Below, piece after piece: positions 10,025 to 30,371 of a stretch of DNA of 64,000 bases; positions within the stretch are counted from its first letter, which is position 1; every line of letters starts with the position of its first letter. Under the pieces are notes generated by a model. The model did no database searches, had not been told where the DNA came from, and worked only from the letters and a program-made list of their open reading frames with translations. The position numbers and the translations under genes are program-made. Location: IMG/VR virus record IMGVR_UViG_3300028591_000168, positions 1 to 64,000 of that record, one strand, 5' to 3'. The DNA comes from a virus (lineage: Duplodnaviria; Caudoviricetes).

Positions 10025-13000
10025 TTACCCTTCTACCACTTCAACCTGGAGCGACGGATCCGCCATTGCCCCAGTCCCCATGTGGTTTACTCCGTTGTCA
10101 ACGTTTTTGGGATATCTCATTGAGAACTTCAGGGTGACGCTATGTTCACCCTCAGGATCCCACGCGTATTGCTTAATTCCGTACTCGTCGACGAACTCCG
10201 TTGCCTTTTTGTCCATAAACAAGAGATACAAGGAGTCTCCGTCAAAGTCACAGCCTTCATTCAGGCGCATTACGAAGTGATTTGCCGGAATAACGACTAT
10301 GCCCTTAGACAGACTCTTGATTGTTCTGACTGTCGTGTCGATCAGGTCTTGGCTGATCTCTCCTTGATCTTTCAGCTCTTGGCCTTTCGCTACAACTCTG
10401 GCTATATACTCTTCTCTCGATATGGTTCTTGCACAGGGATCAGAAGAGTACATATCTGTCACCAAGCCGTTTGCACCAAGCACGCAGAACCCTGCTACCA
10501 TGCTTGCGATATCAGGCAGGATCATACAGTGAGTGCCGTCGATCGGCAGGTTAAGCTTGCCAAAGTTTTTGTTCAACTTCTTCAAGCTTTGTTTGACTAC
10601 ACGCAGGTAATCGTGCTTGAAGTAGTTGAGTGCGAATTTGGGGTCAAGCTTGTGCGTGACGTCGACAAGGTTAGGATCCTTTTGAACAATCCTTTCCTCA
10701 CCGGTGTCTTCGTCGATCTCTGTTGTGTAACGGGTAACGAAGTCGTCAACAGAAACCGTACGATCTTCTCTGCCAAAGATTTTTGCTTCTTCTTCTTGGA
10801 TCATAATAGACCCTAAGATCTCGCACATAAGCATTGTCTTTGACAAGTCACGCTTTGCAGTTGAGCACAGCATTTGGGTGCTGGTAACTGCACGGTGGTT
10901 ATCACCGTGAGCGATAGACAAGACTTTCAGTCCGCTCTTGTATTTCCAAGGCATATGAGCTGTCTTCTGCCCGTTAGCGTCAGTCAGGTACTCAACAGGT
11001 GCACCGTCGTCTTCACGAGTAGCGTAGAAGTAGATAACCTTGTTGACAATAGTCTTGTGTTCTACGCCACGACTGTCAACAAGAACGGTACCTTCGTTGA
11101 TATCAGCTTTGAACTTCCTGACACCAAGTTTCATCCAAACGTTCTGTTGCTCTTCTGTCATCTCGTTAACGTAGAAGACAATCGGAGTGCCTGTCTGCTC
11201 TATAAGCGTATGAATCTTTGCGTCGATAGTTTCCTGATCAACGATCAATCCTGTACGCTTGTTGACGTTATAGGCACGTTCTTGCAAAAGCAGTCCGACC
11301 AACAGAGCAGCTTCAAAGACAGTTTTGCCTCCTGTTTCTTCCGTAAAGCTTGCGGCGGCAAACAAAGCACTGATAAATCCTGTGCCGTCCATTCCTTCGA
11401 AGCCCTTACGGTCTTTGAACTTGCCAGAAAATACAACGTAAGATCTGAACGCTTTCTTGAAGTGATGGGCAAACGCGTTAGGCAGAACCATACGCTGCAT
11501 AAACTCTGCGTTGGCCTTGAAGTCATAGTCACCGAACAACGAGAATGCCTCAACGGCTCCGCACGTCATAGCGTTATACACCTGATCCCAGTTAACGCCA
11601 CGAGTAGCGTCAGGACCGGTATACGTGCCGCACATCCTAATTTTGAAGTTCTTCAGTTCGCCGGTAGACGAAGAACAATAGGCAGGTGTGTACGTATAAA
11701 ACCCGTTCTGATTAGCATACTCTCGCCATTCTTTAGCCGTGCAAAGGTTGCCGTTGACGATATTGAGCATAAACGAACTGTCTGCGGTTTTTACCACTCT
11801 CCAGAACGTGTCATTTCCGTCCTTAGAGATAACCTTGAACAAGGTCATTAACTCCGCTTTGACTTTGTTGCCTTTGATCTGTTTAATGTCAAATATCTGG
11901 CAGATATCCTCCCAGCTGTTGACAGACAAGATCAGACAGTCGTCCGAGTAGTTCTCCTTGTAACGTTCGCTGTTGTTGCTTTCTTTGCAGAAACGCCCCT
12001 CCTTTTGAACAAACAAGGAGAATACAGAAGAGTGATCGTCCAACAGATCGATAAAGACCTTGTAGCTGATCTCTTTGACCTTGTCCGAAACCTTTCTGCT
12101 CTGTTTCTCAAAAGACAGAATCGAGAACGTTACGTTACGATCTTTACGATCCATAAATTGTTTCCTGAATGCCTCTATGCAGTCTTGCTGCGTTTTCAAG
12201 AAATACTGCGCAGGCCTGTTAAACCTAACGCCGCCCTTGAGATTGCGCAGCATTGCAAGACCCTTCTGAGCTTCAGGTTCTTTTACTGCTCTCTTTACCG
12301 CTGAAATTACCTCCTCTCTGTTTTCAAGGTCAGCGAACCCCTGGTGTTTCTTGAGAATACCGATATCTTTCTTCAAGAGTTCACCGACAACGGCGTCAGC
12401 TTTTTTGCCGACAAGCCCGTTAACGAACTTGACGTAAGCAGCGATGCCTGCACTGCGCTGTTCTTTGAGAATGTTAATCGCCTCCTCTTTAGTAACAGTA
12501 GCCCTGTCGTCTCCGATAACTTGGTAAGTTCTGTACTTAACGTAAAGTGCATACCAAGGATCTTCACTGCTGATATCAGCAGCTTTAATCTTTTCGAAGA
12601 CATTAAGAGCCGTTTGTTCTATTCTGGAGTATTGCTCCAGCTTCTGATAACGGCAGAGTACCCATGCCGCCTTTTTAACAGCTCTAATCTCACGAAGATA
12701 CTGGATAAGGTTATTAAAGACAGTGTAGTAACTGCCGTTGACCTCATTGCTTGACAACACTTTGTTGATATCTGCGATTTTGGATACAAACTTAACGTTG
12801 TCCGCAATCGAGATAGCTTTCCTGTAGTGCCAAGCCAAGTTATCCAAAGCTTGATCAAGCTGTTCTTCAAGGCGCTTAGCACTGCCGCCTCTTTTAATAG
12901 CTTCGTAAACAGCTGCTAAAATTCTGGCGGTTTTGTCCTGCTGCGCTGCCTTGTCAGTCACTTTGTCGTCCTGTTGCGGCAACCTGTCAACCACAGCTTC

Positions 13001-14305
13001 GATATCAACGTCGCTGAACAAAGCTCTCGCAACTTCTTCCGTCACGTTCTGCAGCGGATTTTCTTCGTTAGCGTTTTGGAAGAAGTCATATACGACATCG
13101 TTTGCACTTTGTTGTTCTTCGATAAATATCCCCTCCTTAAAGTTAAAACGAATCCCTGCTGTTTGCAAGATAGCAAGAGTCATAGCAGTTCTTTTATCTA
13201 AGTCATAGACGTCGATAACATTGCTGCCCGGTTTCTGCAATACAAAGTTCATAAACTTGTTGGCAGATACGAACTCAACGTCTACTTTGTGATCCAGACG
13301 TTTAATTGTGAAGTTATCGTTGTAACCGCTGTGGCAGCATGCAACCTTGATCGTCTTAACAAGATCTGGCCTGAAGTCAGACCAAGCTGCTGTTTCATTG
13401 GTAAGATACAACATCCACTCCATCTTGACTCGGGTAGCCAAAGCGTCAGGTCTGGCGACACCGTCAATTGCACAAATGCCGCCTTTTTTGCCGCCATGGC
13501 AGATTAACAACAATGTTTCTTCGTCAACGGAGTACATAGTCCAACTTGCGTTAACGTTGGGTTGCAATCCCCAAGTGTCGTTGTCGTTGCCAGACATTGC
13601 GACTACTCTGTTAACAGCAACGCTATGTTTGTTGCAACGGTTGAGCAGTGTAGAAAACAGAGTCTTGCTGGCAGTTTTAGTCGCGTCAGGGGCGTATTTG
13701 TTTACAACTTTGAGACCGTCAGCAATTTTTCTGGCAGCAACTTTAATAATAGACTTGACAGTCTTCTTAATTGCTTGATTGCCACCAAGAACTGTTGCTG
13801 TACCGTTAGCCCAAGCTTCCCAACGGTATCCGTCTTGTACGTCTGCTGTGACGGCAGCTCCGGTTTCTGTTTGGCTCTCCCGCGTCAGCTGTTTGTAAAG
13901 CTGTTTGGTCAGGCCCCACGTGTTAGCGTAGATTCTGCCGAAGCATTGCGGTCTGGACAAGAAAAGCTTCAGGTCAGACCAAAAATGCGCCTGCTTGCTT
14001 TGTCTGACGACAATGCAGGCCGCCATTACGACAGCGGTCTTGCGTGCCCACATGGGGAATACCGCTTTTTGCCGTGCAGTGCGTTCAGCCTCAGCCTTAG
14101 CTTTAGCCTCAGCCTCAGCCGCGTGAGCCTTCATTGCTGCGAGCGCGTTTTTCAGCGCCCTTTTTTCGTCGCGGTGAACTTCTGCCCACGCTGCCTGGAT
14201 ATCAGCGCAGACAAGCTCGTTCTTTGTAGTTGAGATAATGAGATTGGCGACGGAGCCGCCCTTTGCCGCAATAGCAGCGGTGATCATTTTTTCTTTCAAC
14301 AACAT
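10025..14305 (-). CDS. YonO-like / cellular-RdRP-family (double-psi beta-barrel) RNA polymerase (1426 aa)
   Basis: MDGTGFIS (DGxGxIS), LQERAYNVNK (QxR..K) and GIVVIP...GCDFDGDSLYLLFMD (catalytic DxDGD at ~10235-10249); AAGGAGG RBS. Confidence 0.7.
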   Translation of the reverse strand: MLLKEKMITAAIAAKGGSVANLIISTTKNELVCADIQAAWAEVHRDEKRALKNALAAMKAHAAEAEAKAKAEAERTARQKAVFPMWARKTAVVMAACIVVRQSKQAHFWSDLKLFLSRPQCFGRIYANTWGLTKQLYKQLTRESQTETGAAVTADVQDGYRWEAWANGTATVLGGNQAIKKTVKSIIKVAARKIADGLKVVNKYAPDATKTASKTLFSTLLNRCNKHSVAVNRVVAMSGNDNDTWGLQPNVNASWTMYSVDEETLLLICHGGKKGGICAIDGVARPDALATRVKMEWMLYLTNETAAWSDFRPDLVKTIKVACCHSGYNDNFTIKRLDHKVDVEFVSANKFMNFVLQKPGSNVIDVYDLDKRTAMTLAILQTAGIRFNFKEGIFIEEQQSANDVVYDFFQNANEENPLQNVTEEVARALFSDVDIEAVVDRLPQQDDKVTDKAAQQDKTARILAAVYEAIKRGGSAKRLEEQLDQALDNLAWHYRKAISIADNVKFVSKIADINKVLSSNEVNGSYYTVFNNLIQYLREIRAVKKAAWVLCRYQKLEQYSRIEQTALNVFEKIKAADISSEDPWYALYVKYRTYQVIGDDRATVTKEEAINILKEQRSAGIAAYVKFVNGLVGKKADAVVGELLKKDIGILKKHQGFADLENREEVISAVKRAVKEPEAQKGLAMLRNLKGGVRFNRPAQYFLKTQQDCIEAFRKQFMDRKDRNVTFSILSFEKQSRKVSDKVKEISYKVFIDLLDDHSSVFSLFVQKEGRFCKESNNSERYKENYSDDCLILSVNSWEDICQIFDIKQIKGNKVKAELMTLFKVISKDGNDTFWRVVKTADSSFMLNIVNGNLCTAKEWREYANQNGFYTYTPAYCSSSTGELKNFKIRMCGTYTGPDATRGVNWDQVYNAMTCGAVEAFSLFGDYDFKANAEFMQRMVLPNAFAHHFKKAFRSYVVFSGKFKDRKGFEGMDGTGFISALFAAASFTEETGGKTVFEAALLVGLLLQERAYNVNKRTGLIVDQETIDAKIHTLIEQTGTPIVFYVNEMTEEQQNVWMKLGVRKFKADINEGTVLVDSRGVEHKTIVNKVIYFYATREDDGAPVEYLTDANGQKTAHMPWKYKSGLKVLSIAHGDNHRAVTSTQMLCSTAKRDLSKTMLMCEILGSIMIQEEEAKIFGREDRTVSVDDFVTRYTTEIDEDTGEERIVQKDPNLVDVTHKLDPKFALNYFKHDYLRVVKQSLKKLNKNFGKLNLPIDGTHCMILPDIASMVAGFCVLGANGLVTDMYSSDPCARTISREEYIARVVAKGQELKDQGEISQDLIDTTVRTIKSLSKGIVVIPANHFVMRLNEGCDFDGDSLYLLFMDKKATEFVDEYGIKQYAWDPEGEHSVTLKFSMRYPKNVDNGVNHMGTGAMADPSLQVEVVEG

Positions 14306-14342
14306 TTTTAACGCCCTCCTTAAGGGTAAACAGAATATTAAC

Positions 14343-14361
14343 AACGGCTTTATATAAACAC
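14343..14361 (-). promoter_or_regulatory. Class II upstream motif GTGTTTAYATA(A/GAT)AGCCGTT, copy 1 of 6
   Basis: Also at 15859, 16686, 20121, 22824 and partially 28719; 31-39 nt before the start codon in 5 copies. Confidence 0.65.
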
Positions 14362-14403
14362 ACCACAACAACAATGCTGTGCGGCGTGATTGTTGGTAAA
14401 ACA

Positions 14404-14434
14404 AAAAGCCCCTCAGGTCAGAAACCCAAGGGGC
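14404..14434 (-). terminator. intrinsic terminator
   Basis: GCCCCT...AGGGGC stem with a T run on -. Confidence 0.6.
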
Positions 14435-15824: not shown

Positions 15825-15900
15825 TTTTAATATCCCCTTTTTAGTTAAACTTGTTGATAACGGCATCTATGTAAACACGACAAGGCGTGATAAAACAGTA

Positions 15901-19568: not shown

Positions 19569-20090
19569 TTAGTAGACCGGAGACTCGACCTCCTTGTAAG
19601 GAACGCCGAGTTTGTCGGCAATAGCCTTGACATACCTCCTTTCTGTTGTCGTTGCGCTGGCGTTGCACCAGCAACCGACTATTTTGAAGTCACGGCACCA
19701 CGCTTCATGATACCGACCGTCGTCGTACGGCGCGACGCTGGTTTTGTCGACGATCAAGCTGCTGCGCAGCCAACTGTTCGTATAGTCGAACAGTCGACCG
19801 CCGACAGCTGACGCTGCGTCCACGTAGCTCTCGATATCTTCGTTTGCGATTAGGGTGATATCTCCCTTGACGAAGACACCGAAGCTGCCGATCTCCTCAC
19901 CGGGCAAGGAGCAGCAGATATCCCTGCCGGCTTTGGCAACTTTGAGCAACCTTGAGAACGTGTCGACTATGCTGGCGCCCAGCGCCTTAGCACTGAACGC
20001 CTTCAAGCCATGCGCAAGCGTGATACCCTGCAGTGCTGTGCAAGGTTTGACACTTGTCAGAAATGTTTCGAACTTCTTGTTAATCTTCAT
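19569..20090 (-). CDS. stand-alone predicted ART-like domain protein (173 aa)
   Basis: AHGLKAF...ICCS...GSFGV...DIES...YHEAW...GCW; AGGAGG RBS. Confidence 0.7.
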   Translation of the reverse strand: MKINKKFETFLTSVKPCTALQGITLAHGLKAFSAKALGASIVDTFSRLLKVAKAGRDICCSLPGEEIGSFGVFVKGDITLIANEDIESYVDAASAVGGRLFDYTNSWLRSSLIVDKTSVAPYDDGRYHEAWCRDFKIVGCWCNASATTTERRYVKAIADKLGVPYKEVESPVY

Positions 20091-20181
20091 AGTGAATTCC
20101 TCCTAAAACAAAGTGTTAATAACGGCTTTATGTAAACACTGTGATATCAACAACGGCTTTGAAGATATCTCAGTGGAATTG

Positions 20182-20210
20182 TTGACAAAGAAAAAGCCTT
20201 ATGGTATAAT
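20182..20210 (+). promoter_or_regulatory. consensus extended sigmaA promoter, antisense to the 36-aa peptide genes
   Basis: TTGACA-17-TATAAT with TG at -15/-14. Confidence 0.8.
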
Positions 20211-20315
20211 AAGGCTAAAGTTGAACAGCAAGATTCTCTCTAGTCTTATCTTGCTACAGCTGTTGTACTCTTAGGTAGCTGAAAGTATAGGCAAAAATAT
20301 CGTATGTATGGTAAG

Positions 20316-20426
20316 TTAACTGCCAAGCAACATTTTGGTAAGACAATCTGCGAAGTAGTACAGAATGTCAAACCAGACATCGATGGCGTTGATAACTGTG
20401 GCAATGTCTACCATTAACTTCCACAC
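20316..20426 (-). CDS. small hydrophobic peptide, family W, copy 1 (36 aa)
   Basis: AAGGAGG RBS, GTG; MWKLMVDIATVINAIDVWFDILYYFADCLTKMLLGS*. Confidence 0.8.
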   Translation of the reverse strand: MWKLMVDIATVINAIDVWFDILYYFADCLTKMLLGS

Positions 20427-20705
20427 AACGAACAGCCTCCTTTCTGACAAGCTAAGAGAACAATCTCTCTTGTTACAGCAAGAGACCCTGCACAAAGCAT
20501 TAGTAAGCATCTTAGCAATAAGGTGCTTACTATCGCTTTGTACAAAGGAATGTTTGCTAATGTCTTGTGCAAAAAGGTTTAACGGGGCTTCAGAGTGTTC
20601 CGAAGCCCCGAACAGCAAGCAGGATTATCTGTATCTTATCCTGCCAAACCAAGGTACTCTTAAAAAGCTCAAGGTATAGTAAGATTATCTGACGTATAAT
20701 GAAAG

Positions 20706-20816
20706 TTAATTGCCAAGTAACATTTTGGTAAGACAATCTGCAATGGCATACAGAATGTCAAACCAAGTCGTAATGGCGTTGGTAAGAGTTGCTGCTTCGA
20801 TTATCAACTTCCACAT
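20706..20816 (-). CDS. small hydrophobic peptide, family W, copy 2 (36 aa)
   Basis: AAGGAGGT RBS; MWKLIIEAATLTNAITTWFDILYAIADCLTKMLLGN*. Confidence 0.8.
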   Translation of the reverse strand: MWKLIIEAATLTNAITTWFDILYAIADCLTKMLLGN

Positions 20817-20950
20817 ACGAAAGAACCTCCTTCCCCTTACTTTTGTTAAGAGTATCAATCTCTCACACTGTCACTGTGAGACCCTGCACAAGGCATTAGC
20901 AAACATTCTGCCAAGAAAGTGCTTGATAGCGGTTTGTACAAAAAAAACAC

Positions 20951-20978
20951 AAAAGCCCTCCAAAACAGAGGGCTTTTA
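20951..20978. terminator. bidirectional terminator-like hairpin
   Basis: AAAAGCCCTC CAAAACA GAGGGCTTTT. Confidence 0.7.
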
Positions 20979-20996
20979 GTGTCTGAAAAGGAGGAG

Positions 20997-21025
20997 GAGC
21001 AGTTTAACGTCATGTGTTCAGGACA
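20997..21025 (-). ncRNA. H-type pseudoknot motif, copy 7 (degenerate S2)
   Basis: UGUC/GACG-UUAAAC-UGCUC, 3 nt after the stop at 21028. Confidence 0.45.
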
Positions 21026-21027
21026 AA

Positions 21028-22785
21028 TCAGAATGGCACATCGTCGAGGTCAATAGGCTCGCCACCCCAATCGTCGTCGTCTGTGTCATAGGAGGATATA
21101 TCGTCCTTTTCGCCACTGTTCTCGCCACTGTAATGTTGTTGCCTGTTCTTGTGCCACACCTGTCTTTCTTGTGACTTGGCTTGTTGCATCCAAATACCCA
21201 AAGGCGTGTACCAGCACAAGGACGCCTCCTCGTCTTCAGGACTAAGAGGTATCTCAATGCCGAACATATCAAGCATCGAGTCGTAGTCAAACTTAATACT
21301 GCAGCGAAGTTTGTCGAAGAATTGCTTGACGTCTTCCCCCTGTTGCTCCCTGCAGAATCCTGCGGCGTACAGATACCACAGGAATTCGTAAGTGTCACTG
21401 CAGCAAAAATATCCTTTGTCCACAATGTCACTTACGAATTTATTAACGGGGGTCCACCTATTTTTCTCGGCGTCAACAACGTAGCATTGCTTGTCAAGAA
21501 ATTCAGCGAACTCCCATATGTTTATAACAAAATGGGGGTGCTCTACTGCAAACTGTCTTTCGATCCAAAATGCAGTAATTTTATGTTTGTCAAAGCAAAC
21601 GAATGACTCCGTGTACTTGTCGTCGTCTGCTTTATTTCTTTTGACAGCCTTTTTGAAGGCTTTTAAGGTTTTGCACCCTGAGCTTTCGTCAAAGGCGTGT
21701 GCTACCCTGTCTTCAAATTGAACTGAAGAACTGACGTCGTGTGAGAATGACGCCTTAATAACAGGGTATTTTAACACAATGCCGAAGCCGCCTAAAAACT
21801 TATTGCGCTCTGTTGCACAAATTTGGGCGTTTGTCGGCAGATTGTTCAGCTCTTCTAACCGAGTATACAATCCGCCCAACGACCTGTCGCACTGGTTAAA
21901 TGCCCACAGCCCGTGATTAACAATAATTCTGTCACGACGCCCGTCAAGGCCGGAACCTATTTCTTCCGTCCTGCAGAGCTCACACTTCTCGTCCCTGATT
22001 ATGCTCTTGGTGACGTAGAAGCGGTCTTCTGTCGTGGTTAACGTATACACCGTCTTAACAGGCCTTGTTAAAGACGGTGTCTCCGCATTCCACGGAGCTT
22101 TGGTTTTGCGACCGCAAATGGGACATACAACTTCTTCTTTTAAGAAGCCGTAATCTTCTAAGTCTTGATCGTCGCAGGTGCACTTCCATTGCCACTTATA
22201 ATAACCATTGGAGACGTTGCTTATTGCACGCAACAGTTCTTCTTGGGTGAACCGTATATCGTGTGTTTCCATAACTGGCAGTGACACGCCGTAGTTTAGC
22301 GCGATTTCGCACTGCCACGCTGACGTCACCCCGTTAACCGTTTCAGGAGGATAGCTTTTTACCAGGGTGGCGTTCTTTGTTAACCACTCAAGATCCTCCG
22401 CCGTCTTGACATAAAAATGCCACGGCGTGGTGCCTTTTGCGGTATAGCAATACACCACAGCCGGCAGATCGTCTGCCATTGCCATGAACCTGTTGTCCCT
22501 TTCAGGCACAGGCCATTTATCGTGCTTACTGCACACGGCAAGCTCTTCGTTGAGAGCAGTTTCGTATGCCGCCAGCGCGGCCTTGACAGCTTTGCGCGCC
22601 TTTCTTGCAAGGCGAGCTGCGGCGCGAGCCTTTTCTGCGGCACGACGAGCCGCCTTTTTAGCTTCGACAGCACGACGTTTTTCAGCCTTTTTGGCCTCAG
22701 CGGCGCACATTGTCACAAACTCGTCGATAGTGACTTTCTTAGCTGCCAGCGCAGCTTGAATTTTGGACTTCAGATTAATCAACAT
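21028..22785 (-). CDS. 585-aa protein: Ala/Lys-rich N-terminus, Cys zinc-ribbon, predicted ART-like domain
   Basis: KCTC/CPICGR/CELC; NHGLWAF...ICAT...GGFGI...DVSS...YTE...FW. Confidence 0.75.
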   Translation of the reverse strand: MLINLKSKIQAALAAKKVTIDEFVTMCAAEAKKAEKRRAVEAKKAARRAAEKARAAARLARKARKAVKAALAAYETALNEELAVCSKHDKWPVPERDNRFMAMADDLPAVVYCYTAKGTTPWHFYVKTAEDLEWLTKNATLVKSYPPETVNGVTSAWQCEIALNYGVSLPVMETHDIRFTQEELLRAISNVSNGYYKWQWKCTCDDQDLEDYGFLKEEVVCPICGRKTKAPWNAETPSLTRPVKTVYTLTTTEDRFYVTKSIIRDEKCELCRTEEIGSGLDGRRDRIIVNHGLWAFNQCDRSLGGLYTRLEELNNLPTNAQICATERNKFLGGFGIVLKYPVIKASFSHDVSSSVQFEDRVAHAFDESSGCKTLKAFKKAVKRNKADDDKYTESFVCFDKHKITAFWIERQFAVEHPHFVINIWEFAEFLDKQCYVVDAEKNRWTPVNKFVSDIVDKGYFCCSDTYEFLWYLYAAGFCREQQGEDVKQFFDKLRCSIKFDYDSMLDMFGIEIPLSPEDEEASLCWYTPLGIWMQQAKSQERQVWHKNRQQHYSGENSGEKDDISSYDTDDDDWGGEPIDLDDVPF

Positions 22786-22879
22786 GATAAGCCCTCCTTA
22801 GAGCTATGGACAAAAAAGTTAACAACGGCTTTATGTAAACACAACTGTCGTTATTAACGCGACAGTGTGGTTGAACAGT

Positions 22880-22942
22880 TTTTCCCGTCTGCGTTTACAG
22901 AGGCTTCGGACTCTTAACCGTTAGGTTAGCCGCATTAGAAAA
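22880..22942 (-). ncRNA. twister ribozyme B
   Basis: UUUUC-UAA-UGC-GGC-UAACC/GGUUA-AGAGUCCGAAGCCUCU-GUAAAC-GCA-GACGG-GAAAA; predicted cleavage 22937/22936. Confidence 0.88.
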
Positions 22943-22948
22943 TAGATC

Positions 22949-22977
22949 TTGACATTTGTGATATCAAGATCTATAAT
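22949..22977 (+). promoter_or_regulatory. consensus sigmaA promoter, antisense to the 41-aa peptide gene
   Basis: TTGACA-17-TATAAT. Confidence 0.8.
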
Positions 22978-23051
22978 GTCAGATAAGTTCTGACAAACTT
23001 CTGCGATTATTACGTTCTCGAGAAAGAAACAGAAAGGCATGCTAGCCAGAA

Positions 23052-23177
23052 TTAACCGAAAACTGCGTGAGCTATTGCGTAAGCAATAACACTTTCGACA
23101 ATTCTAGATATCTTAACCTCAGACAAAGTTTTTTGCACAAACTTGCCTAAAGTTTTAAGAATCTTTTTAGCTTTCAT
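23052..23177 (-). CDS. small cationic/hydrophobic peptide, family K, copy 1 (41 aa)
   Basis: GAAAGGA RBS; MKAKKILKTLGKFVQKTLSEVKISRIVESVIAYAIAHAVFG*. Confidence 0.75.
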   Translation of the reverse strand: MKAKKILKTLGKFVQKTLSEVKISRIVESVIAYAIAHAVFG

Positions 23178-23201
23178 GCCGTTTTTCCACTTCCTTTCAT
23201 T

Positions 23202-23244
23202 AAACAATGTCAGTTATTGTCGTGAGGAATAACTGACATTGTTT
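23202..23244. terminator. 17-bp perfect-stem hairpin, likely terminator of the + antisense RNA
   Basis: AAACAATGTCAGTTATT GTCGTGAGG AATAACTGACATTGTTT. Confidence 0.65.
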
Positions 23245-23247
23245 CTT

Positions 23248-23308
23248 GTTTTCTCTCTGCGTTAGGGGCTTGAGACCCTCTGCTCTAAGAGTAGGCCGCA
23301 TTAGAAGA
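23248..23308 (-). ncRNA. twister ribozyme C (weak P1)
   Basis: UAA-UGC-GGC-[P3]-AGGGUCUCAAGCCCC-UAAC-GCA-GAGAG; T1 CU/AG compensatory; predicted cleavage 23303/23302. Confidence 0.78.
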
Positions 23309-23314
23309 TAAGCC

Positions 23315-23343
23315 TTGACATAAAAGACGTCAAAGCTTATAAT
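23315..23343 (+). promoter_or_regulatory. consensus sigmaA promoter, antisense to the 35-aa peptide gene
   Basis: TTGACA-17-TATAAT. Confidence 0.8.
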
Positions 23344-23414
23344 GTCACGTAAGTCCTGACATTTCAGACTTCAAAGATTGGTTTCGCTTTCTTTGATAAG
23401 CGTTTTACTGTTGA

Positions 23415-23476
23415 GTCACATTGACAGTAACGAAACAACGCCGTTTCCGTACCCTTGACCCTGGGCACTCTTATCA
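23415..23476 (-). ncRNA. unidentified conserved structured RNA motif, copy 1
   Basis: Paralogue at 24021-24083 with compensatory stem changes around a conserved AAACAACG (+) loop. Confidence 0.45.
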
Positions 23477-23543
23477 ATTGTTTGTGCTGTAATCACAAAC
23501 TTACCAAGAGAGAAACGGAACAGGTATGACTAAGATAAGTTCA

Positions 23544-23651
23544 TTAACCGATGATATAGTGCAAGATAAGACCTGCAATTACCATTTCGGCAATGTTCTT
23601 AACGCTAAGGCTTTTAATGTGGTTAACCAAAGCGTTTACGATCTTTTTCAT
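23544..23651 (-). CDS. small peptide, family K, copy 2 (35 aa)
   Basis: GGGAGGT RBS; MKKIVNALVNHIKSLSVKNIAEMVIAGLILHYIIG*; shares I.E.VIA..I.H...G* with the 41-aa peptide. Confidence 0.75.
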   Translation of the reverse strand: MKKIVNALVNHIKSLSVKNIAEMVIAGLILHYIIG

Positions 23652-23726
23652 ACCTTGTGCACCTCCCTACAAAAAAGAGATATCTTTTATTGTTGTTACA
23701 GTCAACAGAAGATATCTCTTTTTGTC

Positions 23727-23793
23727 TCTTCCCTTCCACAGTTTATAGAGGCTTAGGACTCTCAACTACGCTATAGTTGGCCGTGTTAGAAGA
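23727..23793 (-). ncRNA. twister ribozyme D
   Basis: UCUUC-UAA-CAC-GGC-CAACUA/UAGUUG-AGAGUCCUAAGCCUCU-AUAAACU-GUG-GAAGG-GAAGA; predicted cleavage 23788/23787. Confidence 0.9.
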
Positions 23794-23799
23794 TAAGCC

Positions 23800-23828
23800 T
23801 TGACAAACGCTTCTATAAACCGTATAAT
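23800..23828 (+). promoter_or_regulatory. consensus sigmaA promoter, antisense to the 38-aa peptide gene
   Basis: TTGACA-17-TATAAT. Confidence 0.8.
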
Positions 23829-24020
23829 GTGCAAGAATCGTGGATGCCACGAGGATAGCTCGGTAATAAAGCATATAGAACATGTTAATCCCGAGAATCT
23901 TGCAATTAAAGTTGTAAGAAGCATAGAAACAAGATATCAAGGCTTATAATGTCACATAAGTCCTGACATTACAGACTCCTGCAACAGTTATGTTCTTGCA
24001 GGTAAACAAACATAGTTGCA

Positions 24021-24083
24021 GTCACGTTGGCTATGTTAGAAACAACGCTACTTCCGTACCCTTAAGGCGGGGCATCCTTATCA
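24021..24083 (-). ncRNA. unidentified conserved structured RNA motif, copy 2
   Basis: See 23415-23476. Confidence 0.45.
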
Positions 24084-24134
24084 CTGCTGTCACAAAGGCA
24101 GCCACCAAGGAAGAAGTAGAAGCCGTAAAGAAGG

Positions 24135-24251
24135 TTAGAAGTTGTTCATAAAGAAGTTAACAATTTGCCATATCCACCTAATGACGGTTAAGGGATTTTT
24201 CTTGGCAAAAGTTATAGCTTTACGAAGATACTTTTTAAGCTTCTTCTTCAC
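24135..24251 (-). CDS. small cationic amphipathic peptide (38 aa, GTG start)
   Basis: AGGAGGTG RBS; MKKKLKKYLRKAITFAKKNPLTVIRWIWQIVNFFMNNF*. Confidence 0.75.
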   Translation of the reverse strand: MKKKLKKYLRKAITFAKKNPLTVIRWIWQIVNFFMNNF

Positions 24252-24382
24252 GGTATGTTCACCTCCTAGAGAGTGTGACAGTGATAATAACGGTTGTATA
24301 GCACAAAAAGGCCTTAGCATTCCTCGACTTGATCAGTTCACAGTACTGACAGAATGCTAAGGTTCTTTTTGTTTGTTGGGTC

Positions 24383-24455
24383 TTTTTCCCTCTGCGTTAG
24401 TGGCTTGGGACACTCTACCCTTGACGATAACAACAGGGCAGGCCGCATTAAAAAA
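24383..24455 (-). ncRNA. twister ribozyme E
   Basis: UUUUU-UAA-UGC-GGC-[P3]-AGUGUCCCAAGCCACU-AAC-GCA-GAGGG-AAAAA; predicted cleavage 24450/24449. Confidence 0.88.
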
Positions 24456-24477
24456 GGGCCTCAAATGAGGCCCAAAA
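24451..24477. terminator. terminator hairpin whose U-tract doubles as the P1 strand of twister E
   Basis: GGGCCTC AAAT GAGGCCC flanked by A/T runs. Confidence 0.7.
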
Positions 24478-27172
24478 GTTTCATATTTTCTATTATCTGC
24501 TGCCGCTGCTGTTGCAGCTTTTCGACACTCACGGACATAGTCCGCTTGCGCTGTGTGCAGCGGCGTGCGCATTCTTCGGGATCGGTGTCCACGAAATGCG
24601 CGTTAATTTCGTAGCCGCACTCCCTGAGGACGTGTGCCACGATTTTAAGCGAGCCGTTGTCCCCAACCATGGGGATAGCGACGTTGTACCCTTTCACCGC
24701 GAGATACTGCAGGACCCAGCTAGCAATCTTGCTGGACTCTCTGCAGACATTAGTGGCGTCGCCGCCGTTGTACTCGGGCAGCAACCACTTAACAACGTCG
24801 GGATCGACAGTATAGTAGCCGTCAAGACCTCTAACGTATGTCGACTTACCAGAGCCCGGAAGACCGCAAACGATCGTAGCCTTACGGTCTCTTTTAGCTA
24901 CCTGGTCCGCTCTTCTAGTGAGAAGATTGAACAGATATGCCCTCAGCCACGGGCGACTTTCTTCAAGGCCGAAATGACCCCAGGTGTCTCCTTCGACCTT
25001 GATAGAGTTGACTGCGCTGTCAATACCGTGTTGCCAATAGGCAGCGCAGTACTCTGAGGCTTCCATGCTGCCCTGCAGCTCACTATCGGTGAACTTCAGA
25101 ACATACATTTGTACACCTGTATCTTGCGCAATGTCTGTTAGCGCTTTAAAGAAGTGGGGGTGTCCCACCGCAAAATCTTCCTTGATCCACATTGCAAGGA
25201 GTGAAGCATTCTTGCCCATTCGTACGATAAGCTCAACGTACTGACAGGCATTGTTGCCGTACGCCAAGTGATCTTTGACGGCGTCGTTATACGCCTTTCT
25301 ATTCTTAAGTCCAGCGTGGAAATTACGGGTGGCGTAGCGTTTGTCGCTATCCTCCTCGTCCCGTTCGGACCAAGCATCGGAGCAGGTGTAGTCAAACGCC
25401 GCTTTGATATCAGGGTGTTCAATTGTTACCCCAAAATCTCCGCAGAACTGCTCCTGCTCCGTGGTGCAAAATTCCACGGTTTCAGAGAGAGAAAGGAACT
25501 CCCTGAAACGCTGCAAAGCGCCGTGGACGTTGTTCTCTCCCTTTCTGAAAGCCCACAGACCGTGGTTGACGGTAATGTTATCCTTGACACCGTCAAGACC
25601 GCCACCGTAATAGACAGTTTGGCAGTCGTTGCACATTTCATCGCTGTCAAGGTTGGCAATCGCTATGCTGCCTTCCACAAGTCTAACTTCGTATCTTATA
25701 GAAGACAAGTAGAAGTTGCTATGCCGGCAATAGCTGTGTATGCTCTCCTTTCCGCACTTCGGGCAGCGTTTACTTTCGTTAACGCCTCCGTTTTGCGTTT
25801 TCGCAGCGACGAAAATTAGCTCCTCCGCTGAATTAACCTTCGCGACTTCTTCTTTTTGAAGGGCCTTTTTGCAATCGGGGCAAATCAGTCCATTTTCAAG
25901 CCGGCCTTTTATTACGCCAACATGTTCTCCTTTCTCGTTGACGTAATATTGCCCGAAGGAATCCAGGGTTTCGTAGTAATTGTTTTCGTCACCTCCGTCC
26001 TCTTCCTCCGAGAGCTTGCCGCAGATTGGGCAAAGTACTGCTACCCGTTCTGCAACGATATTGTCGTTGTCGTCGAGCTCGTTTGTGGAAAGAAGATCAA
26101 CGGTGCACTCCCGCCAAGAATTGACAGGTCTGCTCTCGACTTGCAAAAGCAGTGCCTGCTTGCACTCTTCGAACGACGTATCGACGAAGGTGTAAGCGTC
26201 CTCTTCCTTAATGGAAGTGTCGTTTGCGTCAAGGAAGACACCTTCTATTTCAAGCCGCCCTTCCTGGTAATTTCTATGGGCGTACGTTATTACGCTCTTT
26301 TTCAAGAGCAGTTTGAAGTCACGCACCGTGTCTATTTCGTAACAACGGCTGTCGTGCTTCTCAACCGGATTCTGTACCTCAGCGTAAATGGTGTACCCTT
26401 GCTGGAGAAGCTTATCGATAGCCTTCGCATACTCACAGCACCTTTCTGCGCTGGGCAGATACTTGAGCGCGTCCATAAGAAGCTGGTGTTTCTCCTTAAC
26501 AGCTTCAAACGCGTTTTCTATTGCGGCCGACTTGGATTTGAATTCTGCCTCGGCCTCTTCATTATTTTTCTTGTCCTCTTCTGTGAGGCCCCAGCCGAAG
26601 AAGCCGGTTTTTACTCGAGCGCTATATGCACTATACGCTTCGGTTCTGTTCTTTTCGTACTCCTCCTCTGCCTGCAACAAGTCTGCCTTAGACTTCTGGA
26701 GCAAGTCCAGTGCCTCTTGCAGGCCGTTCAACATTAGAGACTTGATAGCCTCCACCGGCTTGACCGGCTTGACCGATTCTTCCCAAGCCTTACCGGCCTT
26801 GATGTCGGCAGCAATGGCTGCCTTTTTATCGGCCATTGTGCTGGCCTTCCAGCTGTCCAAGGCCGCTTTCTCGGCCTTACGGGCGCGGCGGGCAGCAGCT
26901 TTCGCCCTGCGCGCCGCATCTTTTGCGAGGCGTTCTTCCTCGCGTGCTTTCTTGGCCGCGATAGCTGCGGCTTTTCTTGCGGCCTTGGCAGCCGCTTGGC
27001 GGCGTGCCTCGGCTTCCTCAGCGCACGCCAGCACGAACGTGCTGGTCGTGTAGCCAGCTGCTTTCAACGCAGCGGACAATTTCTTGCTGATCGTGTTGTT
27101 TTTCATTTTGAACATCTCCCTATTTTTGCTTTCGTTTTTGTTGCTGTTGTTGGTGTTGTTCATTTTCGTCAT
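24461..27172 (-). CDS. 903-aa polyvalent protein: Ala/Lys-rich N-terminus, zinc ribbons, predicted ART-like domain, C-terminal zeta-toxin-like/AAA_33 P-loop kinase
   Basis: CPICGK, CPDC, CPKCGK, CNDC; NHGLWAF...FCTT...YVE...MW; GLPGSGKSTY...VDPDVVKWLLPEY; AAGGAGG RBS. Confidence 0.75.
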   Translation of the reverse strand: MTKMNNTNNSNKNESKNREMFKMKNNTISKKLSAALKAAGYTTSTFVLACAEEAEARRQAAAKAARKAAAIAAKKAREEERLAKDAARRAKAAARRARKAEKAALDSWKASTMADKKAAIAADIKAGKAWEESVKPVKPVEAIKSLMLNGLQEALDLLQKSKADLLQAEEEYEKNRTEAYSAYSARVKTGFFGWGLTEEDKKNNEEAEAEFKSKSAAIENAFEAVKEKHQLLMDALKYLPSAERCCEYAKAIDKLLQQGYTIYAEVQNPVEKHDSRCYEIDTVRDFKLLLKKSVITYAHRNYQEGRLEIEGVFLDANDTSIKEEDAYTFVDTSFEECKQALLLQVESRPVNSWRECTVDLLSTNELDDNDNIVAERVAVLCPICGKLSEEEDGGDENNYYETLDSFGQYYVNEKGEHVGVIKGRLENGLICPDCKKALQKEEVAKVNSAEELIFVAAKTQNGGVNESKRCPKCGKESIHSYCRHSNFYLSSIRYEVRLVEGSIAIANLDSDEMCNDCQTVYYGGGLDGVKDNITVNHGLWAFRKGENNVHGALQRFREFLSLSETVEFCTTEQEQFCGDFGVTIEHPDIKAAFDYTCSDAWSERDEEDSDKRYATRNFHAGLKNRKAYNDAVKDHLAYGNNACQYVELIVRMGKNASLLAMWIKEDFAVGHPHFFKALTDIAQDTGVQMYVLKFTDSELQGSMEASEYCAAYWQHGIDSAVNSIKVEGDTWGHFGLEESRPWLRAYLFNLLTRRADQVAKRDRKATIVCGLPGSGKSTYVRGLDGYYTVDPDVVKWLLPEYNGGDATNVCRESSKIASWVLQYLAVKGYNVAIPMVGDNGSLKIVAHVLRECGYEINAHFVDTDPEECARRCTQRKRTMSVSVEKLQQQRQQIIENMKLLGLI

Positions 27173-27436
27173 GATAATCAACCTCCTTTGGTTGCACACT
27201 CTGTCTGATATCTTCAGCTCAGAGTCGAGACCCATGACGTGGTCTCTTTACAGGTTTACCCACCCTTGATTATAGTGAGATGATCCTCACTCGAGATTAT
27301 ATTGCCTGTACAACGCTGTCAGAAAAAGCTAACGTTGAAGGCGAGTCTCGGTTGCCCATTCAAACCTGTTAGAAAGCATGGGATATATGTTAACGTAAAC
27401 TCATATATCGGATATAAGCTTACGGTTGATCAGTAT

Positions 27437-27514
27437 TCTTCCCTTCCACTGTTTATAGGGGCTTAGGACCCTTTCCTTTGATCTTTTGATATCAAAGGAA
27501 GCCGTGTTAGAAGA
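27437..27514 (-). ncRNA. twister ribozyme F
   Basis: UCUUC-UAA-CAC-GGC-UUCCUUUGAU/AUCAAAGGAA-AGGGUCCUAAGCCCCU-AUAAACA-GUG-GAAGG-GAAGA; predicted cleavage 27509/27508. Confidence 0.9.
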
Positions 27515-27589
27515 TAAGTCTTGACACAAAAGATAAAGAGATATCTTTTATTGTTGTTACAGTCAACAGAAGATATCTCTTTTTGTTTT

Positions 27590-27647
27590 CTTCCTCTCTG
27601 TGTTAGGGGCTTGAGACCCGCTGTCTTACGACAGGCCACATTAGAAG
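27590..27647 (-). ncRNA. twister ribozyme G
   Basis: CUUC-UAA-UGU-GGC-CUGUC/GACAG-CGGGUCUCAAGCCCC-UAAC-ACA-GAGAG-GAAG; predicted cleavage 27643/27642. Confidence 0.88.
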
Positions 27648-27705
27648 CGCCCCTGAAAAGGGGCGAGAAGCTGCGCGCACCCCTGAAGAGGGGCATTTAC
27701 TGTAA

Positions 27706-28566
27706 CTATTCTGTTATAAAGACGTTGACTCCCTTGGGAATCTCGTCTTTTACCAGATAATACATTGCAGGGGTCATCCAAACCCCCAATACGGCAGGAT
27801 TTTCCTGCCATACTTCTGCGCAATTATCGATATCTACATGTGAGTAGATATCGATAATTGACCGCTTGTATTTTTTCTTGTCACATTCTCGGCCGCCATC
27901 AGGCATCTTCCACGAGAAGACGTCTTCTGTAGCGGCGAATTTGACGTTACCACGAAGCAACACGCCAATGTTGCCCATGGGTTTGCCGCTGGTGCACAGC
28001 ACCATTTTATGCGTTTCCATTTTGGCGTACAGAGCCAATGCCCTGGCCAAAAGTCCCGAATAAAACTTACGCCGCAACTTTTTCGTCATAATGGCTACTC
28101 GTTGAGGCGAAGCCTCACCACCAAAAGACTCCATTGTCTTCTTTACGTCTTCCTCATTCGGAGGAAAAGACATAAAGTCAACAGCGTGATAAAACGCTAC
28201 GCTGTCGAGCATGGTGACGGGCACCTGCGCTTCTTCTGCTTGTGTTATCACAGGCACAAGAGCGCGGCAGGGCAGTACCGTGAGAGCGCGGCAGGGCACC
28301 ACGACAAGAGCACGGGTCTGTACCGGCACCAACGCGCGGCACTCGGCCGGTACGAGAGTGCGGCAGGGCAGCACCGTAATGGCACGGCAGGGCAGCACCG
28401 TGAGAGCGCGGGGTTGTGCCTGCACGAGAGCGCAGCAAACAGTGGTTGCCGAGCTGTTGATGTCGTCGACGTTAACGCTGGTGTTGCTGCTAGTGGTGTT
28501 GTCGCTTGCAACGAGTGCTGCGACGAGCATGAGAACAACAATGATAACGATAATGATAATAGTCAT
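27706..28566 (-). CDS. membrane-anchored protein with 8-aa tandem repeats and a C-terminal predicted ART-like domain (286 aa)
   Basis: N-terminal IIIIVIIVVLMLVAALVA; RALTVLPC-type repeats; YHAV...LCTS...GNIGV...DVFS...AEVW...GVW. Confidence 0.7.
   Translation of the reverse strand: MTIIIIVIIVVLMLVAALVASDNTTSSNTSVNVDDINSSATTVCCALVQAQPRALTVLPCRAITVLPCRTLVPAECRALVPVQTRALVVVPCRALTVLPCRALVPVITQAEEAQVPVTMLDSVAFYHAVDFMSFPPNEEDVKKTMESFGGEASPQRVAIMTKKLRRKFYSGLLARALALYAKMETHKMVLCTSGKPMGNIGVLLRGNVKFAATEDVFSWKMPDGGRECDKKKYKRSIIDIYSHVDIDNCAEVWQENPAVLGVWMTPAMYYLVKDEIPKGVNVFITE
28250..28410 (-). repeat. about 7 imperfect 24-bp (8-aa) coding repeats
   Basis: RALTVLPC RAITVLPC RTLVPAEC RALVPVQT RALVVVPC RALTVLPC RALVPV. 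Confidence 0.85.
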
Positions 28567-28781
28567 GATTATTACCTCCTTAGGGTAACCCGTGCATGCC
28601 TTGTTGCAAGTCACGGTCGGAAGACATGACGACTTCCTGGATCTTCTGGCTTAGTTTATAGTGAGGTGCGACTCACTCGGTTACAGCAACCAGTTCCCAC
28701 TCGATCCTAAAACATGGGTTTATGTAAACACGGCAAGAACGAAGCGTATAGCTATGTTGTTGCAAGCCGTAGTTGAACAGT

Positions 28782-28850
28782 GCTAGCCATCTGCGTTTAC
28801 GGAGGCTTTGGACTCCTAGCTTTGATATCAAAGCTAGCCGCATTACGAGC
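28782..28850 (-). ncRNA. twister ribozyme H
   Basis: GCUCG-UAA-UGC-GGC-UAGCUUUG/CAAAGCUA-GGAGUCCAAAGCCUCC-GUAAAC-GCA-GAUGG-CUAGC; predicted cleavage 28845/28844. Confidence 0.85.
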
Positions 28851-28920
28851 AATTCTCACGAAATTGACCCCGGGGGCTAAAAATCCCAAAATGACCAAGA
28901 TCATAATAAAAACAGGTTCC

Positions 28921-29030
28921 TCCGGAAATTTTTTATTTTTTGAGATCCTAATAGGTTTTTAGACTTTTTGAGATCCTAATAGGTTTTTTAGACTTTATCT
29001 TTTTTAGCGAGTTTCCGGAAATTTTTCCTT
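28921..29030. repeat. tandem ~28-bp repeat flanked by TCCGGAAATTTTT direct repeats at the strand switch
   Basis: TTTTGAGATCCTAATAGGTTTTT(T)AGACT x2. Confidence 0.8.
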
Positions 29031-29100
29031 GAAACTCTGAGGATCTTTGTTATAACCGGTAATAGCAAGAATAGGAGGGAAAAAGAAAGGATGGTAGAAA

Positions 29101-29394
29101 ATGGGTATCGGATGTGGTGCTGCTAACCTTAACAGGATAGTCAGCAACAGAAGTCTTAACGACATTGCAGGTATCTTCAAGAGTGGTATGGTAGGACAAG
29201 GGAGATATCACCTTAACTATGGTGACGCTCTTAACACCGGTCTTGACCAGATTAATCCCCTTGCCTTTTTGGGAGCCGGAGGAGGAAGACAAGGTACGGG
29301 CTTGATGAGTAATCTTACAGCTGCTACTGGAGCACCCGGACAACAGAGTTTTGGACGCTTGTTTAACACTCTTCCCAAGGCGTTCAAGTTTTAG
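29101..29394 (+). CDS. Gly-rich hypothetical protein (97 aa)
   Basis: GAAAGGA RBS; first gene of the + arm. Confidence 0.65.
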   Translation: MGIGCGAANLNRIVSNRSLNDIAGIFKSGMVGQGRYHLNYGDALNTGLDQINPLAFLGAGGGRQGTGLMSNLTAATGAPGQQSFGRLFNTLPKAFKF

Positions 29395-29427
29395 AAATTA
29401 GTTCTTGTGAGGAGGACAAAAGAAGAG

Positions 29428-29697
29428 ATGACTGTTACCAAAGGTAAGATAAAGATAGAAGACGTTGAGATTGCAGGAAAGTTTTCCTTTATCGGGGAGG
29501 TTGACCGTACAAAAAAACCGCCGATCTTGACGATCAGCGGTGTTGTTGAGACTGCGGCAAGATTACCTGACAGTTTTAAAAGTATGGCAGGTGGCAGAGT
29601 TGTTCTCTTTGACGTTTTGATCAACAGTGAGAGTGCAGGCAGCGAAGATAACAAGATCGTTTACGGTTTTTCTGCTAAGCGTTACGAGATAAGGTAA
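29428..29697 (+). CDS. hypothetical protein (89 aa)
   Basis: GAGGAGG RBS. Confidence 0.7.
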   Translation: MTVTKGKIKIEDVEIAGKFSFIGEVDRTKKPPILTISGVVETAARLPDSFKSMAGGRVVLFDVLINSESAGSEDNKIVYGFSAKRYEIR

Positions 29698-29732
29698 CAG
29701 CAGCAGAAAAACCTTACAAAGGAGTGTTAACA

Positions 29733-30371
29733 ATGTCTGATAACGGTTGTGACGACAAGCTTTCAACCTTTTTGGCTGCTCTTCCTGAAAATCCGTGGGG
29801 GTTGTCAAAAAAAGGTTTGTCTGCAAAGAGGGCTGCTACTGCCCTTAACGCGGTTAAGACAGGCATGTACTCTTCGATACCGATAATCTGTAAGGGCGCT
29901 GCCTGCCCTTACGCTGAAACTTGCGCACTGTTACCGTATGACTTGGCACCTGAAGGTGACCTGTGTCCCGTTGAGATATCAAAGATAGAAGCTTTAATCC
30001 AAGGTTACGTCTCTGACTTTGACCTTGACGATATGAGCTTTACCGACAGAGCCTTGGTTAGTGAGGTAGTCAGTCTTGATATTATGCTTGACAGGTGTAA
30101 GGCTTTGATGGCTAAGGAAGGGACGCCCGTCCTTGACGTGGTTATCGGGATATCAGAACACGGTGAAGAGATACGGCAACCTGCAGTATCAAAGAGTATA
30201 GAGGCTTACGAAAAGCTGACGAAGAGAAAAGATAACAAGCTTATGATGTTAGCTAAGACTAACAGAGATCGTCAACGTTTTGCGCCGGAAACAGATAAGC
30301 AAAGCTGGATCCAAAGTGTAGCTGACGTTATAACGATTGACGACCTTGAGGAGAGCAACAAGATATCGTAA
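29733..30371 (+). CDS. Cys-containing protein, possible terminase small subunit (212 aa)
   Basis: AAAGGAG RBS; KTGMYS, CKGAACPYAETC...CP; helical C-terminus; position in the late operon upstream of TerL. The TerS call is an inference. Confidence 0.4.
   Translation: MSDNGCDDKLSTFLAALPENPWGLSKKGLSAKRAATALNAVKTGMYSSIPIICKGAACPYAETCALLPYDLAPEGDLCPVEISKIEALIQGYVSDFDLDDMSFTDRALVSEVVSLDIMLDRCKALMAKEGTPVLDVVIGISEHGEEIRQPAVSKSIEAYEKLTKRKDNKLMMLAKTNRDRQRFAPETDKQSWIQSVADVITIDDLEESNKIS

Follow-up and report, generated by a model that had tools for sequence, protein, structure and literature searches.

We describe an array of three small-peptide gene cassettes in a phage contig (Duplodnaviria; Caudoviricetes; IMG/VR virus record IMGVR_UViG_3300028591_000168), analysed in a window that comprises the first 64 kb of the 79.5-kb record. 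Between positions 22880 and 24455 four twister ribozymes of the minus strand delimit three consecutive units, and every unit holds one open reading frame (ORF) led by a Shine–Dalgarno (SD) motif together with a perfect sigma-A promoter on the plus strand, 7 nucleotides (nt) from the next twister. We think it somewhat probable that these units are paralogous peptide modules resembling toxin–antitoxin (TA) systems of type I, embedded in a long minus-strand phage transcript that would be processed by its ribozymes. On the evidence of its sequence the locus is real and conserved, and suggestive as to mechanism. An initial annotation of the same stretch had proposed the four twisters, one ribosome-binding-site-led ORF of 35–41 amino acids (aa) per unit, and a TTGACA-17-TATAAT promoter on the opposite strand beside the next ribozyme. 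All three proposals held: start-to-start twister spacing gives units of 366, 485 and 662 nt (with the ribozymes supported by Rfam and by covariation), the ORFs encode 41, 35 and 38 aa (the SD of the first, peptide 1, being weaker than the others), and the promoters match at 12/12 hexamer positions in all three units.

The features are listed in window coordinates, with strand where one applies; TIR denotes the translation initiation region, anti-TIR the segment predicted to pair with it, UTR an untranslated region, and P0 the hairpin immediately 5' of a twister.

22881–22941, minus: twister-P1 E; cleavage predicted between 22937 and 22936; the 5'UTR of a 585-aa gene follows
22949–22977, plus: promoter P1, 12/12, embedded in the P0 hairpin of twister E (22942–22974); antisense RNA predicted from ~22984 to ~23258
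23021–23049, minus: anti-TIR of unit 1, −27.5 kcal/mol
23052–23177, minus: peptide 1 ORF, 41 aa, ATG start, weaker SD
23202–23244: hairpin T1, a good plus-strand terminator, weak on the sense strand
23249–23307, minus: twister-P1 D, predicted cleavage 23303/23302; the weakest helix P1
23308–23543, minus: structured 3'UTR of unit 2; hairpin HE and a P0 hairpin (~23308–23340) lie within it
23315–23343, plus: promoter P2, 12/12; predicted antisense RNA ~23350 to ~23735
23506–23537, minus: anti-TIR of unit 2, −24.1 kcal/mol
23544–23651, minus: peptide 2 ORF, 35 aa, ATG start, SD GGGAGGTG (strong, GGAGGTG-type)
23672–23723: hairpin T2, a predicted two-way intrinsic terminator
23728–23792, minus: twister-P1 C, predicted cleavage 23788/23787
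23800–23828, plus: promoter P3, 12/12; predicted antisense RNA ~23835 to ~24383
23806–23936: insertion of ~130 nt in unit 3, splitting the old P0/promoter palindrome; absent from the related contig L046
23931–24134, minus: structured 3'UTR of unit 3, helices HA–HE, core GGGUACGGAA
24101–24134, minus: anti-TIR of unit 3, −24.5 kcal/mol, pairing with the SD and GTG start region
24135–24251, minus: peptide 3 ORF, 38 aa, GTG start, GGAGGTG SD; net charge ~+10; Trp-rich hydrophobic C-terminus
24305–24369: hairpin T3, U-tract on both strands, −29.8 and −29.0 kcal/mol; predicted to terminate the plus-strand antisense RNA
24384–24454, minus: twister-P1 B, predicted cleavage 24450/24449

Eight matches to the Rfam twister-P1 family (RF03160; Roth et al. 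2014, cited in PMC6765202) lie in the contig, all of them on the minus strand and all intergenic; besides bounding the cassettes, twisters stand upstream of large genes of the same arm at 15904, 22881, 27438 and 28783. Scores range from 41.4 to 53.5 bits (E-values of 2e-10 to 6e-7 in a 3.5-kb scan and of 1e-12 to 3e-9 over the contig). In an alignment of the eight copies 94.4% of cells pair, and compensatory changes occur in 15/23 pairs, both pseudoknots included: not one of 500 shuffles matched this covariation. Helices P1, P2, P3 and P4 and the two pseudoknots are all supported by it, and the core nucleotides are conserved, the UA of the cleavage site included; 22 columns are invariant, among them U5, A6, A7 and the AAGCC loop. 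Because of this covariation across eight copies, we take the twisters to be real. The P0/L0 stem–loop on the 5' side is a known optional element of twisters (PMC11662667), and the 37 nt upstream of 38 unrelated viral twisters are unusually structured (−9.0 vs −5.7 kcal/mol, p = 3e-5). For twister B the part of P0 is taken by a terminator-like hairpin (24456–24473) that belongs to the upstream 924-aa gene. The present copies thus share with the type-P1 twister its core nucleotides, helices P1–P4, both pseudoknots and a hairpin immediately 5'; they differ in that the P0 DNA also spells a perfect sigma-A promoter on the other strand, whereas the 48 twister matches seen in 42 other viral loci include not one with a consensus promoter in its P0 DNA.

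The antisense promoter of each unit lies within the P0 hairpin of the downstream twister, its −35 hexamer beginning 7 nt from the 5' end of the ribozyme. In the whole contig there are four perfect TTGACA-17-TATAAT promoters, all on the plus strand within the minus-strand arm and all directed against the genes: since only 0.026 are expected and none arose in 300 Markov simulations, the arrangement is not due to chance. Over eight distinct promoters variation touches none of the 12 hexamer columns, against 15/17 spacer columns and 27/30 columns further downstream. Although the insertion in unit 3 took the place of both spacer and −10, a perfect −10 still stands there at 17-nt spacing. That the hexamers are invariant amid a varying spacer, and that the promoter survived an insertion of 130 nt, is strong evidence for selection on the hexamers for promoter function. 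At the other end of each predicted antisense RNA, between twister and SD, stand the T hairpins (−20 to −30 kcal/mol), with A-tracts before and U-tracts after: they are good plus-strand terminators in 3/3 units (−22 to −30 kcal/mol), and in units 2 and 3 they look like terminators of the sense strand as well. A weak 9/12 sense-strand promoter mirrored in the P0 palindrome was considered as a toxin promoter for each module and set aside, as its −10 is conserved neither in L046 nor at twister C.

The start of each peptide gene appears to be hidden. Some 30 nt directly after the stop codon are predicted to form a duplex of −24.1 to −27.5 kcal/mol with SD and start codon, compared with −11.8 ± 3.3 kcal/mol (minimum −19.9) for the same regions of 53 other genes of the contig. 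The three families have distinct start contexts with matching partners, and cognate pairs are stronger than cross-family pairs. Two 36-aa peptides elsewhere in the arm (20316–20426 and 20706–20816), which share a further antisense promoter, give −26.8 and −23.5 kcal/mol; twister-flanked cassettes for a 65-aa protein that have no antisense promoter give −9.5 and −11.4 kcal/mol. Because all five peptides with an antisense promoter show a strong TIR duplex, hidden start and antisense consensus promoter accompany the small peptide in 5/5 cases.

This pairing forms part of a larger fold. The 3'UTR element spans ~190 nt and five helices, and in an alignment of seven diverse copies 26/42 predicted pairs show compensatory change; its consensus energy is −52.4 kcal/mol on the sense strand vs −38.0 kcal/mol on the antisense strand. 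Unit 1 of the window has lost ~115 nt of the element by deletion. In hairpin HE the arms vary and covary while the loop is conserved, which for that reason reads as the signature of an RNA hairpin and not of a DNA operator. Neither HE nor P0 can form in the plus-strand RNA, since that RNA is expected to begin inside the HE loop; its predicted 5' end is complementary to this conserved loop. The asymmetry between G-U and A-C pairs, used as a test of strand, is suggestive only, with invariant G-U pairs standing at helix ends in both folds.

All three peptides have a Lys-rich N-terminus and a hydrophobic C-terminus, and are therefore probably membrane-active. Orthologues of peptide 1 occur in the related loci L043, L044 and L045 (88% identity) and those of peptide 3 in L043 and L046, while distant homologues of peptide 2 (37 and 36 aa) are found in L050 and L051. 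SD motifs and ORF length are retained across all orthologues, the ORFs being free of indels, and the ratio of non-synonymous to synonymous change (pN/pS) in family 1 is 0.34–0.66, from few changes. Because homologues and module persist together in distant phages, we regard the peptides as a real, if narrow, protein family. Peptide 3 matches the aureocin A53-like leaderless bacteriocins (NF033881) at 15.6 bits (E 0.009), below the curated cut-off of 27 bits: a weak, compositional lead only. ORFs of the plus strand were rejected as products, having neither a conserved frame nor an SD.

Relatives were found with a profile of the three peptides, and their twisters with a covariance model built from the eight twisters of the window. 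In L043 (two cassettes), L044, L045 and L046, all from other samples, twisters flank the peptide genes; scanning metagenome contigs for the junction pattern yielded only L047, which is the L046 contig again, and L048, a second contig with the twister layout of L046. The order of twister, hairpin, peptide gene and antisense promoter 7 nt from the next twister recurs in L043 (twice), L044, L045 and L046/L048, so that the twister–ORF–promoter order is indeed shared by related phages, and the promoter lies in the P0 hairpin at 7 nt from the twister in 8/8 cassettes of this clade. A profile search of 1.8 billion representatives yielded a more distant 36-aa homologue and led to contigs L050 and L051 (P0005, of the distant peptide family, scores 37.5 bits). 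Both carry arrays of small genes, including the 37-aa homologue of peptide 2, in which the modules are kept with antisense promoters matching at 10/12 positions and twisters stand at some borders only; module Y of L050 lacks the downstream twister. The body of the unit 3 cassette is ~95% identical between the window and L046 while its upstream twister is not orthologous, which suggests that cassettes are shuffled at twister borders. In IMG/VR neither the twister/promoter junction nor two conserved 3'UTR stretches turned up by exact pattern; a search for related loci with the 585-aa neighbour protein also returned nothing, and megablast of 20000–30000 against GenBank phages gave no match. Among genome contigs the junction pattern matched once, in a Monoglobus metagenome-assembled genome; with an ordinary promoter and no twister, this was rejected as a chance hit and gives no lead to the host.

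One further element of the window resembles a cassette in ruins:

27438–27647, minus: collapsed cassette; two twisters with a T2-like hairpin and an orphan −35 between them; ORF, 3'UTR and −10 deleted

It looks like the product of a deletion between repeats that contain GATATC. The contig as a whole holds 237 copies of GATATC where ~24 are expected, a ~10-fold excess, and the motif often marks the centre of a hairpin, be it a twister P3 loop, a P0 stem or a T hairpin.

From these elements a working scheme for the peptide modules can be assembled. Since the sense strand from 24461 to 22785 carries canonical terminators and no usable sigma-A promoter, its transcription would require a terminator-insensitive polymerase, encoded by the phage or else antiterminated. 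Twister cleavage leaves 5'-hydroxyl (5'-OH) and 2',3'-cyclic phosphate ends. Cleavage of the transcript, which we infer from the covariation and chemistry of the twisters, would yield monomers 662, 485 and 366 nt long, each beginning with a 5'-OH and a folded twister body and ending in the P0 hairpin followed by CUUCU with a 2',3'-cyclic phosphate. Pairing of the post-stop segment with SD and start, a predicted structure that covaries between families, would leave these monomers translationally inert by default. The host sigma-A promoter on the other strand of P0, which like the terminator is under selection, would meanwhile drive an antisense RNA across 3'UTR, ORF and SD as far as the two-way terminator. 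Its 5' end would meet the conserved HE loop, the likely first contact, and the full-length antisense RNA would keep the monomers silent or target them for decay; peptide would be made only when sense transcription outruns or outlasts antisense transcription by the host polymerase.

More tentatively, the parts can be joined into a 'dead-man switch', which taken whole we think rather improbable. Terminator-blind phage transcription would supply inert, trimmed mRNAs that host sigma-A antisense RNA holds silent; a collapse of host transcription – through phage takeover, defence or stress – would then release the membrane-active peptides. Cleavage would insulate neighbouring essential cistrons from decay triggered by the antisense RNA, and the twisters would double as recombination joints at which cassettes are shuffled between phages.

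Several observations weigh against the reading of the array as ribozyme-processed, type-I-TA-like modules. All twister scores fall under the Rfam gathering score of 67.2, and in published assays twisters with P0 cleave less than those without (0.40 vs 0.85; PMC11662667). The peptides match no family in Pfam, NCBIfam, PHROGs or the ESM Atlas, nor any known toxin family, and pN/pS in family 3 is ~1, albeit from few changes. No sense-strand sigma-A promoter better than 9/12 exists in 22786–24460, so that the toxin gene with its own promoter, usual in type I systems, is missing here. A YonO-like polymerase assignment for 10025–14404 and 7492–9927 was confirmed by no sequence search of Pfam, PHROGs or PDB, and is not used in our account of read-through. 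Finally, twister flanks and the antisense/TIR layer occur apart in the 65-aa cassette, at 20316–20816 and in L050, and the coupling of twister to antisense RNA may be positional only. On this point the initial annotation, which had treated everything as one system, needs amending: the coupling was overstated, given modules at 20316–20816 without twisters, a 65-aa cassette without promoter or helix, and a module in L050 without its downstream twister.

The same cases lend substance to an alternative that we consider unlikely, if worth taking seriously, namely that two independent layers lie side by side: twisters would be generic intercistronic processing sites and the peptide modules ordinary regulated genes, cleavage having no specific role in their control. 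Twisters do precede large genes at four positions; they flank the 65-aa gene in the absence of an antisense promoter, are wanting around the 36-aa modules with their antisense promoter and TIR helix and downstream of module Y in L050, and in an unrelated phage (L001) stand as a tandem of three around ordinary small ORFs. Polycistronic processing is, besides, a standing suggestion for twisters (review PMC6765202). What this alternative leaves aside is the position of the promoter, in P0 at a fixed 7-nt distance in every cassette of the clade and at none of the 48 other twister matches: a register so fixed points to co-adaptation. A different possibility, improbable in our view, is that the plus-strand RNAs are themselves the products, abundant early small RNAs of the host polymerase that act in trans or as decoys, with the peptides never translated. 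The contig has no consensus host promoters besides theirs, each plus-strand unit has its own terminator, the noncoding parts are conserved as much as the ORFs (pN/pS being ~1 in family 3), and most helices are possible on either strand. Yet all orthologues keep SD motifs and ORF length, protein-level homologues persist in distant phages whose DNA has diverged, and in three families anti-TIR and start-codon context covary; consensus energy, too, favours the sense strand, and HE and P0 cannot form in an RNA whose start is expected in the HE loop.

Two other explanations carry far less weight. The initial annotation had suggested that excised monomers are circularised, and one might picture circular mRNAs or RNAs, closed by RtcB-type ligation or by reversal of the twister reaction, as in retrozyme and viroid-like systems. 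Each unit is indeed flanked by ribozymes of the same polarity, the chemistry of twister ends is established, and the P1 strands of neighbouring twisters are alike (YUUY/RAAR), so that the ends of a monomer could re-form P1. This similarity is, however, too generic to discriminate, no RtcB or RNA ligase was found on the 79.5-kb partial contig, and stable linear ends are already explained by the P0 hairpin and the twister fold: circularisation thus finds no support and seems highly improbable. To the idea that the 'promoters' are unused by-products of the P0 sequence we give next to no credence. The −35 and part of the spacer do form the P0 stem, a covarying RNA helix with G-U wobbles, and phage twisters in general have a hairpin upstream (PMC11662667 and the 38 viral twisters above); but such a hairpin has no need of TTGACA and TATAAT at exactly 17 nt, the stem changes in sequence while the hexamers stay invariant, an unrelated insertion still left a perfect −10 in place, and nothing of the kind is seen at the 48 other twister matches.

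How closely the modules resemble known systems can be stated part by part. With the type I TA systems of Bacillota prophages (bsrG/SR4, and yonT/SR6 of SPbeta; PMC6562991, PMC5848175) they share a small hydrophobic/cationic peptide in a phage, a cis-antisense RNA with a strong promoter and its own terminator (here predicted from sequence), and a toxin mRNA that hides its SD and start codon (here in a predicted fold). The type I layout proposed initially is thus upheld at the level of sequence: selected promoters, plus-strand terminators and an antisense RNA that would overlap the mRNA are all present, the predicted sequestration of SD and start lies far outside the background of the 53 other genes, and the peptides fit the class in size (<60 aa) and in composition (hydrophobic, as in membrane-active peptides). 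Control by fold-back of the mRNA, as in hok/sok-type systems, is a comparable way of hiding a start. The differences are that the peptide gene here has no promoter of its own and would be released from a polycistronic RNA by ribozymes, that the antisense RNA would cover the whole body of the mRNA, and that the polarity of the peptides is reversed (basic N-terminus, hydrophobic C-terminus), with no sequence homology. Membership in the type I class is judged incomplete because a toxin promoter and homology to known toxins are both lacking, and roles in addiction, superinfection exclusion or host takeover are speculation.

As a ribozyme-punctuated polycistronic operon the locus is well furnished, with eight same-strand intergenic twisters and a parallel in L001. 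It shares with the ribozyme-rich neighbourhoods of phages and bacteria (PMC6765202) the same-strand ribozymes between small genes of an accessory arm, and differs in the added antisense promoter, terminator and TIR-sequestering fold. Retrozymes and viroid-like circular RNAs (PMC4918200, PMC7229834) likewise have tandem ribozymes of the same polarity and excisable units with ligatable ends, whereas here no ligase, replication or retrotransposition genes are found on the contig and the units are protein-coding cassettes of phage DNA.

Other loci bear on the two layers separately. The 36-aa peptide genes mentioned above are tandem paralogues (69% identical, minus strand, within 20091–21027) encoding hydrophobic/acidic peptides; they lie downstream of the fourth perfect antisense promoter (20182–20210), have no flanking twisters, and have a homologue in L043 (2112–2222). 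A conserved acidic soluble protein of 57–65 aa occupies a twister-flanked cassette of its own in L043 (2390–2891), L046 (10671–11172) and L050 (3081–3254), with neither antisense promoter nor start-hiding helix. L001 (IMGVR_UViG_3300029305_011610, 5043–5990), apparently a different viral contig, carries three tandem twisters with a GC hairpin before each; they bound a segment of 250 nt, for which no ORF was noted, and one of 626 nt with ORFs of 48, 33 and 65 aa, and no antisense promoters occur in these segments.

The array sits within a minus-strand gene arm that spans position 1 to ~29000 of the window. Since its plus-strand arm has genes for portal, major head and tail-sheath proteins, the phage is a myovirus; matches to group I and group II introns fall in this structural arm (41744–42002, 50045–52279 and 63447–63676). 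One of the three peptides, peptide 2, is also encoded, with the same neighbour genes, on a contig of 354,821 nt in ENA (ERZ27256846), and in view of this shared gene order we may be dealing with a very large (jumbo) phage, or with a piece of a larger replicon, and not with the ~145 kb that a completeness estimate of 55% implies. Directly upstream of the cassettes, the gene at 24461–27235 encodes a C-terminal P-loop kinase domain of the Zeta-toxin/AAA_33 kind, and in L051 (1–1782) a Zeta/AAA_33-kinase gene likewise precedes the array of small genes. Polynucleotide kinases belong among the AAA_33 members, and a link between this domain and 5'-OH RNA ends is conceivable. Between the two arms, the divergent region (28890–29000) has direct repeats of ~30 nt and TTTCCGGAAA palindromes, lacks a sigma-A consensus, and is a candidate site of phage-specific promoters or operators. 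A motif, GTGTTTACATA(A/G)A, is repeated in the 5'UTRs of paralogous large genes (22820–22860, 28715–28735, 15870–15895 and 20125–20145), each time a short way downstream of a twister (E, A or F) or of the hairpin at 20195–20216, and is a possible promoter or leader element specific to the phage.

The function of bacterial twisters was listed as unknown in a 2019 review, which suggested polycistronic processing (PMC6765202), and full-text literature searches found no paper linking twisters to type I TA modules or to antisense promoters. The novelty lies in a small peptide surrounded by a start-hiding fold, a two-way terminator and a P0 hairpin interlocked with a promoter. The two strands of a single DNA segment spell different things, one an RNA hairpin and the other a consensus promoter, and ribozyme, P0 hairpin, host promoter, two-way terminator and start-hiding fold interlock at single-nucleotide register: these added elements suggest that some ribozyme-delimited units, at least, serve a specific purpose in regulation. 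The locus yields clear predictions concerning RNA ends, antisense control and the toxicity of the peptides. If the proposal is true, this would be the first type I TA-like module, in the literature searched, to obtain its toxin mRNA by ribozyme excision instead of from a promoter of its own, and the layout offers a candidate, testable job for the twisters of bacteria and phages.

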